64,000 nucleotides of DNA. Source: a virus. Taxonomy: Duplodnaviria; Caudoviricetes. Positions 6,138 through 7,991 of the stretch are shown in pieces. A program made the position numbers and the translations under genes. Each line of letters opens with the position of its first letter. Position 1 is the first letter of the stretch. Location of the stretch: positions 192,001 through 256,000 of the IMG/VR virus record IMGVR_UViG_3300037067_027616; one strand, written 5' to 3'. A model generated the notes under the pieces. The model saw only the letters and a list, made by a program, of their open reading frames with translations. It was not told the origin of the DNA and ran no database searches.

Positions 6138-6163
6138 AAAATGCGAAGTGTTGCTTCGCATTT
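6138..6163 (-). terminator. Intrinsic terminator ending the Asn/Pro/Gln tRNA operon
   Basis: AAATGCGAAG-loop-CTTCGCATTT hairpin followed by a T/A tract just after tRNA-Pro(GGG). Confidence 0.7.
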
Positions 6164-6169
6164 ATATGA

Positions 6170-6246
6170 TGGTCGGGGCGACTGGATTCGAACCAGCGAC
6201 CACTTGGACCCCATCCAAGTGCCCTACCAGACTGGGCCACGCCCCG
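6170..6246 (-). tRNA. tRNA-Pro(GGG)
   Basis: Cloverleaf; CTTGG-ATGGGGT-CCAAG; encoded CCA. Confidence 0.93.
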
Positions 6247-6261
6247 ACGATATCACGTCAT

Positions 6262-6666
6262 TCAACCCTTAACGAGTTCGAGCAAATGGGTACACGGCTT
6301 ATTTTCGGAGTGTTCCGATACGACGCACCCGCATACAGTGCATATGATAGTTTTCGGCTTCAAAGGGCAGGTTATGACACGGTCATATGCTTTTAACAAC
6401 TCTTTTACCAAGTTTGGCTTATGCATTACCAAATTCTCCTTCTCATTTTTTGAGAACTTCTTGATGACGCATTCTCTTTTCAAAGCCGCGCTGCGACTGC
6501 TACACTCCTCCACGTGTACAAGCCTTACTGGCAGTCCCAAGGCCTTCACCGATCGGGCACCTTTACCGGCGTTGTGGGTGGCGACCCTGCGTGGTACGTC
6601 ACAGGTCATTCCCGTGTAGAGAGCGCCTTTGGAGCATCGGACCATGTAGACGTACCAAGATTTCAT
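6262..6666 (-). CDS. GIY-YIG nuclease (UPF0213-like)
   Basis: WYVYMVRC...LYTGMT...RRVATHNAGKGA...ALKRE. Confidence 0.85.
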   Translation of the reverse strand: MKSWYVYMVRCSKGALYTGMTCDVPRRVATHNAGKGARSVKALGLPVRLVHVEECSSRSAALKRECVIKKFSKNEKENLVMHKPNLVKELLKAYDRVITCPLKPKTIICTVCGCVVSEHSENKPCTHLLELVKG

Positions 6667-6687
6667 AGAGCCTCATTTAAAAAAGAT

Positions 6688-6784
6688 TTGGCGGCTTGCC
6701 CCGTCATGTAGTGGCTGCACCACGGCTGCCACCCTTGGGTGTCTAATCCGGCTTTTTGGTCGCCTCACCGGCAGGGCCGCCAAA
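6688..6784 (-). ncRNA. Candidate ~100-nt structured RNA inside the tRNA operon
   Basis: Closing stem TTTGGCGGC/GCCGCCAAA; GC-rich interior with small hairpins; no credible ORF. Confidence 0.4.
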
Positions 6785-6808
6785 CCCTGTATGACTTTCC
6801 TTTCAAGA

Positions 6809-6884
6809 TGGCTGGGGCACGAGGGGTCGAACCTCGGACCTTCTGATTCAGAGCCAGACGCTCTACCAACTGAGCTATGCCCCA
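6809..6884 (-). tRNA. tRNA-Gln(CTG)
   Basis: TCTGG-CTCTGAA-TCAGA; T1-A72; GCCA end. Confidence 0.93.
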
Positions 6885-6892
6885 CTGTATTC

Positions 6893-6967
6893 TCGGGACA
6901 CTCGGATTCGAACCGAGAGTCTCGCGGACCCGAACCGCGCGCGTTAGCCAGGTTACGCTATGTCCCG
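6893..6967 (-). tRNA. tRNA-Pro(CGG)
   Basis: CGCGG-TTCGGGT-CCGCG; CCA not encoded. Confidence 0.9.
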
Positions 6968-7050
6968 TTGTAATCATTGCAGAGGTACCATACCCGTTTC
7001 GGTTTTTCGACCCTTCAGGTACGGCGTGGTATGATACCTCTACATCTTAC

Positions 7051-7126
7051 TGGCTGGGGTGGCAGGACTCGAACCTGCGACACCGACCTTCAAAGGGTCG
7101 TGTTCTAGCCACTGAACTACACCCCA
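7051..7126 (-). tRNA. tRNA-Gln(TTG)
   Basis: CGACC-CTTTGAA-GGTCG; GCCA end. Confidence 0.93.
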
Positions 7127-7133
7127 TCATATT

Positions 7134-7212
7134 TGGTCGGGATGACTGGATTCGAACCAGCGACCCCTTGCTCCCAAGGCAAGTGCTCTAAACCAGACTG
7201 AGCTACATCCCG
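7134..7212 (-). tRNA. tRNA-Pro(TGG)
   Basis: CTTGC-CTTGGGA-GCAAG; ACCA end. Confidence 0.93.
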
Positions 7213-7676
7213 ATATCAATTTTACTCATCGTGACTTCGTACGGTGACAGGTAGTACCTTCCGACCCTGTAATCCGCGTATCCTTCCTTCCTGTCGCCTT
7301 TGAAGCTCCTCGGGCCTGCAGGAGGGTTAGGAAGGTCTTCTACGGTCTTCCTCTGGTCGTACAGCATGAGTCGGCTTCCATCCCTCGCGTACCACTTGTC
7401 GTAGTACCCGATCCTGACACGCTCTCGCTCCCAGGCATCCCAAAGAACTTGCTCCTTCAAGAGTTCCAAATACGCCCCATGGTCACCGTACACGACCCTG
7501 AGGTATCCTTTCGCCACCAAAGTACCCCGCGTAGTGAAGAAGTGCATCGCCGGGGAACCTCCCTCGACCAGGTCAGTGTCCCTCTCCAACGCTTCCTTCT
7601 CCTCCATACGGTTCGGGTAGACGGCCGTTGTCCTGAACGGCTCACCTGTCGTGCATGTGTAGAAGGTGGTCACGTT
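7203..7676 (-). CDS. Hypothetical phage protein (start uncertain; the ORF-track start lies within tRNA-Asn)
   Basis: Protein-like ORF (GYLRVVYGDHGAYLE...YADYRVGRYYLSP). Confidence 0.6.
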   Translation of the reverse strand, partial: NVTTFYTCTTGEPFRTTAVYPNRMEEKEALERDTDLVEGGSPAMHFFTTRGTLVAKGYLRVVYGDHGAYLELLKEQVLWDAWERERVRIGYYDKWYARDGSRLMLYDQRKTVEDLPNPPAGPRSFKGDRKEGYADYRVGRYYLSPYEVTMSKIDIGM

Positions 7677-7686
7677 TAGAATATAA

Positions 7687-7777
7687 TGGCTGGCACGGAG
7701 AGATTTGAACTCCCGATGGGCTTTCGCCACGGCGGATTAACAGTCCGCTGCCTTAGACCAAACTAGGCTACGTGCCA
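7687..7777 (-). tRNA. tRNA-Asn(GTT) with a long variable arm
   Basis: GCGGA-CTGTTAA-TCCGC; extra arm CGTGGCGAAAGCCCATC; T1-A72; GCCA end. Confidence 0.88.
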
Positions 7778-7785
7778 TTGTGTCC

Positions 7786-7797
7786 TGTCAAAGAACA
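7786..7797 (-). promoter_or_regulatory. boxA-like antitermination element TGTTCTTTGACA
   Basis: 10/12 match to rrn boxA TGCTCTTTAACA; between the attenuator and the first tRNA. Confidence 0.55.
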
Positions 7798-7835
7798 AAA
7801 GAAAAACCCCGGCGATCCTTTCGGTCCGCCGGGGT
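7797..7835 (-). terminator. Attenuator terminator 1 (Gln/Asn/Pro operon)
   Basis: ACCCCGGCG-GACCGAAAGGAT-CGCCGGGGT followed by TTTTCTTTT. Confidence 0.88.
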
Positions 7836-7859
7836 CTTGTGTTCTGGTCTTCAGTTAAT

Positions 7860-7940
7860 TCAGAGCGTGCGACCGAACCCCAACGGACTTTTGTTCCGCG
7901 GTTGCTGATTGGGGTTTGGGTTCTGAACGAACAAAAACAT
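7860..7940 (-). CDS. Leader peptide 1 MFLFVQNPNPNQQPRNKSPLGFGRTL
   Basis: AGGAG SD; codons 6-16 CAG AAC CCA AAC CCC AAT CAG CAA CCG CGG AAC. Confidence 0.85.
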   Translation of the reverse strand: MFLFVQNPNPNQQPRNKSPLGFGRTL

Positions 7941-7962
7941 GGTTTATTCTCCTGTGGTGTTA

Positions 7963-7991
7963 AATATACACCTATCGGGACAAATTGTCAA
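7963..7991 (-). promoter_or_regulatory. Sigma70-type promoter TTGACA-17-TATATT for leader 1
   Basis: -35 at 7991..7986; -10 at 7968..7963. Confidence 0.85.

Follow-up and report, generated by a model that had tools for sequence, protein, structure and literature searches.

A putative trp-type leader-peptide attenuator upstream of a Gln/Asn/Pro tRNA operon in a large groundwater phage

Background

The trp, his, phe and leu attenuators share a promoter-proximal short open reading frame (ORF) with a run of regulatory codons and a leader RNA that can form three helices, designated 1:2, 2:3 and 3:4. A ribosome stalled on segment 1 frees segment 2, and control is kinetic. The leaders of ilvGMEDA (Ile/Leu/Val) and thr (Thr/Ile) are multivalent, with several amino acids feeding one termination decision, and leader-peptide attenuation by way of the pheM leader governs pheST, encoding phenylalanyl-transfer RNA (tRNA) synthetase. 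The mechanism of leader-peptide attenuation at pheL has been described (PMC3082878). Here we examine a 64,000-nucleotide (nt) window of the phage record IMGVR_UViG_3300037067_027616, in which a unit on the minus strand with its promoter at 7991, termed U1, heads a block of Gln, Asn and Pro tRNA genes. We hold with good confidence that U1 is a ribosome-mediated, trp-type leader-peptide transcription attenuator gating this phage tRNA operon. Coordinates are positions in the window throughout.

Large phages carry near-complete tRNA sets, whose presumed role is to keep late translation going or to stand in for host tRNAs that have been cleaved. To our knowledge the regulation of these arrays is essentially unknown and they are usually treated as constitutive codon-usage patches; we know of no account of them as compensation or counter-defence that includes a demand sensor. 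In a full-text literature search, leader-peptide control of tRNA genes was nowhere described, an absence that is no proof of its being unpublished, and the words attenuator, terminator, promoter and leader were absent from a survey of viral tRNA clusters. An attenuator-like leader before the E. coli tRNA-Phe genes was considered as a precedent and not supported, as the K-12 pheV and pheU promoters abut the tRNA with no leader ORF and the literature search was likewise empty. As far as we could find, the tRNA target and the logic of a leader that inventories codons are new, while the mechanism itself is a known type of attenuation.

Anatomy of the U1 leader

The minus-strand order of U1 is promoter, ribosome site, 26-codon ORF, U-tailed hairpin, six tRNAs and a closing U-tailed hairpin. 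The sigma-70-type promoter (7991..7963) comprises TTGACA (7991..7986) and TATATT (7968..7963) with a spacer of 17 nt and matched 11 of 12 consensus positions. Transcription would start near 7956. The Shine-Dalgarno sequence AGGAG (7953..7949) is located 8 nt upstream of the ATG of the leader ORF MFLFVQNPNPNQQPRNKSPLGFGRTL (7940..7860, minus strand), which runs for 26 codons from the ATG at 7940 to a TGA stop (7862..7860) and is the sole minus-strand ORF of at least 20 amino acids between the promoter and the terminator. Starting instead from the in-frame TTG at 7934 would give a version of 24 amino acids. Codons 6 to 14 (7925..7899) form a control run of CAG, AAC, CCA, AAC, CCC, AAT, CAG, CAA and CCG, and additional codons read by the downstream tRNAs occur past this run, namely AAC (7895..7893) and CCG (7886..7884). 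An initial annotation made from the letters of the window had credited the leader with CAG, CAA, AAC, AAT, CCA, CCC and CCG, and all of these were present, including the exact cognates of the six tRNAs.

Downstream of the ORF is a GC-rich terminator hairpin (7836..7805, minus strand; -24.7 kcal/mol). Its loop, its 3' arm or segment 4 (7818..7805) and a U tail of the form U5-C-U4 (7806..7797) occupy 7823..7797, and the U tail lies 22 nt from tRNA-Asn. The tRNAs must be transcribed through this terminator because no other promoter could serve them. A TTGACA at 7782..7777 was considered as a second promoter and discarded, having no acceptable -10 box downstream and a start that would lie inside tRNA-Asn. 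A motif, CTTTGACA(G), was found after the terminator U tail on the minus strand of both U1 (7785..7777) and a Glu/Gly/Arg unit of the same phage (18305..18297), as well as in three homologs of U1 (L055, L056 and L069) and in the Glu/Gly/Arg homolog of L001/L059. It resembles a -35 box without a -10 box downstream.

The promoter, ribosome site and terminator of U1 are of standard bacterial type. The features of an attenuator were present, including an ORF with ribosome-binding site and ATG by the promoter, control codons, an intrinsic terminator, a 2:3 helix exclusive with the terminator and a sequestering 1:2 helix, while the regulated genes were six tRNAs and two small ORFs, not biosynthesis or synthetase genes. 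U1 is thus like trpL, hisL, pheL and leuL of E. coli and Salmonella in its short ORF, codon run and four segments, with 3:4 the more stable helix and control kinetic, and unlike them in regulating tRNAs rather than biosynthetic enzymes, in a product that would act directly on the sensor codons and in a control run that mixes three amino acids and six isoacceptors. Integration of several amino acids by one leader is shared with ilvGMEDA and thr. Those leaders list the amino acids of a pathway whereas the phage leaders list the codons read by the downstream tRNAs, and the sister leaders described below, unlike ilvGMEDA and thr, distinguish codon boxes within one amino acid. As with pheST and pheM, the target is a component of the translation apparatus; in that case the component is a synthetase, the leader uses a single amino acid and the gene is a host gene.

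A megablast search with 15 kb against a phage GenBank collection returned no match, and a look-up of sequencing runs listed no RNA run with this DNA. Among the contigs of three DNA sequencing runs, the leader was covered only in the probable source sample and no further variants were found.

Codon match between leaders and tRNA blocks

The phage, an uncultured groundwater phage, is a single contig of 466,729 base pairs (bp) with 49 tRNA calls and a transfer-messenger RNA. Forty-seven of the tRNAs are on the minus strand in five blocks, every one headed by the same promoter type (24 occurrences in the genome), a short ORF and a strong U-tailed hairpin (-19 to -31 kcal/mol). The five leaders are unrelated in sequence and are therefore internal replicates within one genome. 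Besides U1, the putative sister attenuators are U2 (14045..13915, minus strand; promoter at 14100), with leader MFSLKAKRVVSKRRVTPSGVV before Lys, Val and Arg tRNAs, U3 (18441..18329, minus strand; promoter at 18479), with leader MINATVRIAEEGREGRIPT before Glu, CAT-anticodon, Arg and Gly tRNAs, and two units outside the window, U4 and U5 (genome positions 188712 and 183864), with leader MRTTIGISIIFSAIDFDSMDIAM before Phe, Asp, Met, Ile and Ser tRNAs and with a 40-codon leader before 20 tRNAs.

The match between leader codons and tRNAs was scored by standard wobble rules, with the expected codon usage taken from 178 long ORFs of the phage. Eleven of the 25 U1 leader codons were read by tRNAs of its own block, relative to 11.7% expected (p = 5e-5), and the exact Watson-Crick cognate codons of all six tRNAs fell in the nine-codon control run. 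The shifted frames gave 3/25 and 4/25, and scores of the U1 leader against the four other blocks were not significant. The sister units were likewise enriched for own-block codons, with 11/20 in U2 (p = 1.5e-4), 11/18 in U3 (p = 2e-4), 16/22 in U4 (p = 2e-7) and 24/39 in U5 (p = 4e-3), while all 20 comparisons of a leader with another block among the five units were non-significant. The combined score was 21, relative to a highest simulated value of 7.6, and was reached by none of 20,000 random leader sets. When the five leaders were pooled, 73 of 124 codons were own-block codons in the ORF frame, compared to 27 and 25 of 124 in the shifted frames. Given this frame specificity, neither base composition nor RNA structure is by itself a sufficient explanation of the match.

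The blocks divide the Arg, Ser, Val and Ile tRNAs between them, with split boxes in the sister units that include AGA/AGG and CGN for Arg, AGC and UCN for Ser, and AUC/AUU and AUA for Ile. In these families 21 of 22 leader codons belonged to the box of the own block (11.8 expected, p = 4e-6), and the match therefore follows anticodons and not amino acids. This bears on a reading in which the anatomy is the same and the signal is amino-acid starvation through uncharged tRNA, so that tRNA output would follow the pools of Gln, Asn and Pro. What a leader-peptide attenuator registers is the rate of charged-tRNA delivery, and it cannot distinguish a shortage of amino acid from one of tRNA; with no division of the Gln, Asn and Pro families among the blocks, the two signals cannot be told apart from U1 by itself. 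The products are, however, tRNAs, more of which would not relieve amino-acid starvation, and the sister units follow the anticodon. We consider starvation sensing unlikely and favor a response to the decoding of particular codons.

Two features of the Glu/Gly/Arg unit (U3) were also recorded. The ATG of its leader is only 10 nt past the -10 box, and the mRNA may be leaderless or nearly so; the homologous leader in L059 has an ordinary GGAGGAG site. The CAT-anticodon tRNA of this block (17153..17227, minus strand) may be a tRNA-Ile2, carrying lysidine and reading AUA; its leader contains ATA three times and no ATG past the start codon, and the Phe/Asp/Met/Ile/Ser block has two more CAT tRNAs.

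Alternative helices in the leader RNA

Segment 1 lies within the control codons and has two parts (7916..7895, minus strand), an outer AACCCCA (7916..7910) and an inner GCGGA (7899..7895). The pairing of AACCCCAA (7916..7909) with UUGGGGUU of segment 2, proposed in the initial annotation, was found, together with an inner helix that it had not listed; the resulting 1:2 hairpin joins AACCCCA to UGGGGUU and GCGGA to UCCGU (-14.3 kcal/mol). Segment 2, GUCCGUUGGGGUU (7888..7876, minus strand), falls within codons 18 to 22 and can pair with either segment 1 or segment 3, the latter being GACCCCGGCGGAC (7836..7824, minus strand), the 5' arm of the terminator. The antiterminator 2:3 helix pairs 7888..7877 with 7835..7824 over 12 to 13 bp, with two G-U pairs among 12 as had been predicted, and the hairpin has a free energy of -26.1 kcal/mol. 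The 2:3 duplex of U1 (-25.2 kcal/mol) was more stable than in 1000 dinucleotide shuffles (-13.6 +/- 2.5, p < 0.001), and the antiterminator duplexes of U1, U3, U4 and U5 were each better than 1000 shuffles (p <= 0.013). The upstream strand of the antiterminator was located at the last codons or the stop codon in all five units, and in the five-unit fold analysis masking of this strand by a terminating ribosome freed the 5' arm of the terminator.

The effect of ribosome position in U1 was modelled by equilibrium folding of a transcript ending before the 3' arm of the terminator, with a footprint of 27 nt held unpaired. Without a ribosome the probability of the 1:2 helix was 0.60. When the aminoacyl (A) site was on codons 2 to 5, 1:2 prevailed (0.78-0.79) over 2:3 (0.06). 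Once the A site was on codons 6 to 15, comprising the nine Q/N/P codons plus the CGG next to them, 1:2 fell to approximately 0 and 2:3 rose to 0.79-0.99, and with the A site on codons 16 to 24 the values were 0-0.40 for 1:2 and 0 for 2:3. The modelled window of antitermination coincided with the control run.

The same structures bear on two further explanations. In one, the leader is translated and the control acts through Rho, with a stall uncoupling ribosome from polymerase, or through RNA processing or stability, and not through a hairpin switch. The many C and few G residues of the U1 control run (CAGAACCCAAACCCCAAUCAGCAACC) resemble a Rho-loading site. None of the other four leaders is C-rich, that of U3 being purine-rich, and stalling would lower tRNA output, the opposite of what a supply loop requires. 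A strong intrinsic terminator with a complementary strand at the end of the ORF in five of five units would moreover serve no purpose, and we regard control by Rho or processing as very unlikely relative to a hairpin switch.

In the other, the leader RNA senses tRNAs directly without translation, in the manner of a T-box (RF00230), and the codons act as specifiers. The T-box and the phage leader are alike in responding to codon-specific tRNA status, in an antiterminator/terminator switch and in translation-related genes, and here, as in a T-box, codons of the regulated tRNAs are located beside an antiterminator/terminator pair. A T-box binds uncharged tRNA directly without a ribosome, whereas the signal in the phage leader is a translated, frame-specific run of codons: the 11 codons share one reading frame, which opens with an ATG after a ribosome site, both conserved, and closes with a stop codon whose distance is likewise conserved. 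The leader has no Stem I platform and no UGGN bulge. A cmscan search of 3000..20000 at E <= 1 returned only tRNAs and chance matches with none on 7790..7960, and thus no T-box and no Trp, His, Leu, Thr or Phe leader or other cis-regulatory family. Direct tRNA sensing is hardly credible on these grounds, and translation of the leader is the preferred basis for the codon signal.

Homologous leaders in related phages

Related loci were retrieved from IMG/VR and JGI metagenomes with an operon-encoded protein as the query, and five carried a leader homologous to that of U1 (L055, L056, L058, L059, which is the L001 contig, and L069). Both promoter hexamers were kept over variable spacers in all five, as was a GGAG, GAGG or AGGAG 6-10 nt upstream of the ATG. 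The ORF is 26 codons long in five of the six sequences, U1 included, and 27 in L069, such that the single indel is in frame. The core QNPNPNQQPR was kept, with the variants NNPSPNQQPR, NNPNPVQQPR and QNPNNPNQQPR. Substitutions in the control run mostly exchanged Q, N and P codons for one another (Q to N; CCA to CCG or CCC), and the four codons after Met varied freely. In L059 the leaders of two neighbouring units were also kept, with own-block enrichment of p = 1e-4 and 2e-4. Pattern scans of IMG/VR DNA for more leaders of the U1 type yielded, beyond L051 (= L001), only unrelated sequence without a nearby tRNA, none of it a leader.

All three helices were present in five of five homologs. By RNAalifold and pair counting over the six sequences, 92% of cells were paired in 1:2 with three pairs changed on both sides, and 96% in 2:3 with one pair changed on both sides, while slid controls for these two helices were 23-63% paired. 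The terminator 3:4 (-24 to -26 kcal/mol) had three pairs with compensatory changes. The helix structure is conserved, but the covariation is no proof of the helices.

Unrelated leaders in more distant phages

More distant phages share with this phage only a release-factor-like gene, and the same leader-codon logic was observed in them with unrelated sequences. The leader MKTLTNILFVMTLTVLFQFTQTELGFLCLS of L030/L031 precedes Gln, Phe, Thr, Val, Leu and Leu tRNAs, and 18 of its 29 codons were own-block codons (p = 1e-6), the L030 leader being rich in T, L, F, V and Q. Within this ORF CTCGGGTTCTT and the 5' arm of the terminator are perfect complements, giving an 11-bp antiterminator. Further single examples came from a blind survey and included two units in L023, one with codons of I, V, R, K, D, G, W and M and the other with codons of L, S, C and Y, one unit in L038 with codons of N, H, S and W, and one in L019 with A, R, P and W codons before Pro, Ala, Trp, Pro and Arg tRNAs. 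Across all fetched loci the blind survey gave no overall shift towards the own block (Wilcoxon p = 0.45), with strong hits in 4/167 own-block compared to 11/2343 other-block comparisons. Blocks in this survey were set only by gaps of at least 120 nt, a rule that splits real units, and it was used for the single examples from L023, L038 and L019 only.

These comparisons, together with the codon match, address the explanation that the leader is a coincidence or a by-product, being a small RNA or micropeptide gene or a hairpin that ends an upstream gene, with the tRNAs read through constitutively. Intrinsic terminators and short ORFs are common, and terminator-like sites across 3000..20000 were no commoner than in shuffles. 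Against this, five of five units matched only their own block with a score that no simulation reached, the match was specific to the reading frame, the homologs kept the codon class and not the flanking peptide sequence, and other phages had the same logic with unrelated sequences. The hairpin as a mere terminator of the upstream gene was rejected, as a strong promoter sits between that gene and the hairpin and the tRNAs lack any separate promoter. A chance arrangement is accordingly judged extremely unlikely, and the attenuator reading is reinforced by the four sister units, the five homologous leaders and the unrelated leaders in distant phages.

Proposed mechanism of tRNA supply

The attenuator with 1:2, 2:3 and 3:4 helices proposed in the initial annotation was supported, with all of its computable features present. 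Several results nevertheless weigh against it. The antiterminator complementarity of U2 was not significant alone (p = 0.077), and no clear 1:2 protector was found in U3, U4 and U5 by fold analysis. Covariation was weak, with six homologs of which two are nearly identical and 80 of 500 shuffles reaching the observed 2:3 score. In the full-length U1 RNA the terminator was preferred at equilibrium (P = 0.95); since the terminator always wins at equilibrium, the switch must be kinetic, as in trp, and an equilibrium fold of the full leader cannot reveal switching, the informative model being a truncated transcript within the kinetic window. The U1 stop codon is located 15 nt beyond segment 2 rather than before segment 2 as in trpL, hisL, pheL and leuL, and a ribosome at the stop codon leaves segment 2 uncovered with a 2:3 probability of 0.91. 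Termination in the fast state must therefore depend on 1:2 forming again and on the position of the ribosome between segments 2 and 3, where the masking model ignores the steric block that it would impose.

The observed anatomy, codon match, alternative helices and conservation point to a leader that would be translated and on which ribosomes would stall, with regulated read-through that would rise when decoding slows. In the proposed sequence of events, host RNA polymerase would start at the sigma-70-type promoter and a ribosome would load on the 26-codon leader. During fast decoding of Gln, Asn and Pro codons, the ribosome would pass the control run and segment 2 and reach the stop codon, with segment 2 either covered or recaptured by segment 1 behind the ribosome, such that 3:4 would pair and transcription would end at the U tail, 22 nt before tRNA-Asn. 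Slow decoding at any of the nine consecutive Q/N/P codons would stall the ribosome on segment 1, and the free segment 2 would pair with segment 3 upon its emergence, blocking the terminator and allowing the six tRNA genes to be transcribed. The tRNA products would speed the decoding of exactly those codons, which would constitute a direct negative feedback on decoding capacity. The phage would thus probably make the six Gln/Asn/Pro tRNAs only when ribosomes read those codons slowly.

U1 would be one of five channels that together cover 47 phage tRNAs. Whether they amount to a five-channel meter of decoding capacity, with anticodon-level sensing for each block, transcription of tRNAs on demand and shut-off once decoding is restored, we rate as an even chance. 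If so, decay of host tRNAs after host shut-off, or their cleavage by anticodon-nuclease defences, would by itself turn on the phage tRNAs, linking loss of host tRNA to phage rescue. The circuit would be a counter-defence that times itself and the first case of tRNA genes under leader-peptide attenuation. Large phages would then measure decoding capacity codon by codon and supply tRNAs as needed. The reach of classical attenuation would widen from metabolism to the translation apparatus, with a product that feeds back directly on the sensor, and the units would offer portable and tunable parts for synthetic biology, of approximately 150 nt each, that report the in vivo supply of chosen isoacceptors.

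Content of the tRNA operon and neighbouring genes

Exactly six tRNAs were located between 7777 and 6170 on the minus strand, with ARAGORN and Rfam in agreement on each: tRNA-Asn(GTT) (7777..7687), tRNA-Pro(TGG) (7212..7134), tRNA-Gln(TTG) (7126..7051), tRNA-Pro(CGG) (6967..6893), tRNA-Gln(CTG) (6884..6809) and tRNA-Pro(GGG) (6246..6170). These are the anticodons given in the initial annotation, whose addition of 'nothing else' is true for the tRNAs only; two ORFs (7607..7203 and 6666..6262) and a long hairpin (7044..6975) lie there as well, all on the minus strand. The first tRNA, tRNA-Asn(GTT), has an encoded CCA and at 91 nt with a long extra arm is unusual for a tRNA-Asn. Its homolog in L055 is split by a group I intron (L055:332-531; RF00028, 46.8 bits, E = 1.5e-10, slightly below the gathering score).

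The ORF at 7607..7203 encodes 134 amino acids, is 75-83% identical in L055-L058 and was kept beside tRNA-Asn or tRNA-Gln genes in relatives, with no match in Pfam or PHROG. The ORF at 6666..6262, also of 134 amino acids and located between tRNA-Gln(CTG) and tRNA-Pro(GGG), carries a GIY-YIG domain (PF01541, E = 3.6e-14). In L058 the Pro-CGG and Pro-GGG genes are adjacent with no room for this ORF, which is probably a mobile insertion, a homing endonuclease riding in the tRNA operon. The near-perfect hairpin (-33.3 kcal/mol, z = -6.0) is located between tRNA-Gln(TTG) and tRNA-Pro(CGG), has no U tail and may act as a signal for processing or represent a small insertion. The operon closes with an intrinsic terminator at 6163..6138 on the minus strand, where one had been predicted, with a 10-bp stem (AAUGCGAAG-C..), a U5 tail and a free energy of -11.7 kcal/mol (z = -5.8).

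Downstream of this terminator is a CTA-anticodon tRNA of the amber suppressor type, called 'Pyl' by ARAGORN (3861..3937, minus strand), in place of which L001/L059 has a TTA-anticodon tRNA. A 188-amino-acid protein with PCRF and RF-1 domains (17383..17949, minus strand), a truncated relative of class-I release factors, is embedded in a tRNA block and is conserved, with identities of 37-57%, on 40 phage contigs of IMG/VR, many with adjoining tRNA arrays. The CTA-anticodon tRNA and the release-factor-like gene hint at TAG handling or recoding in this phage.

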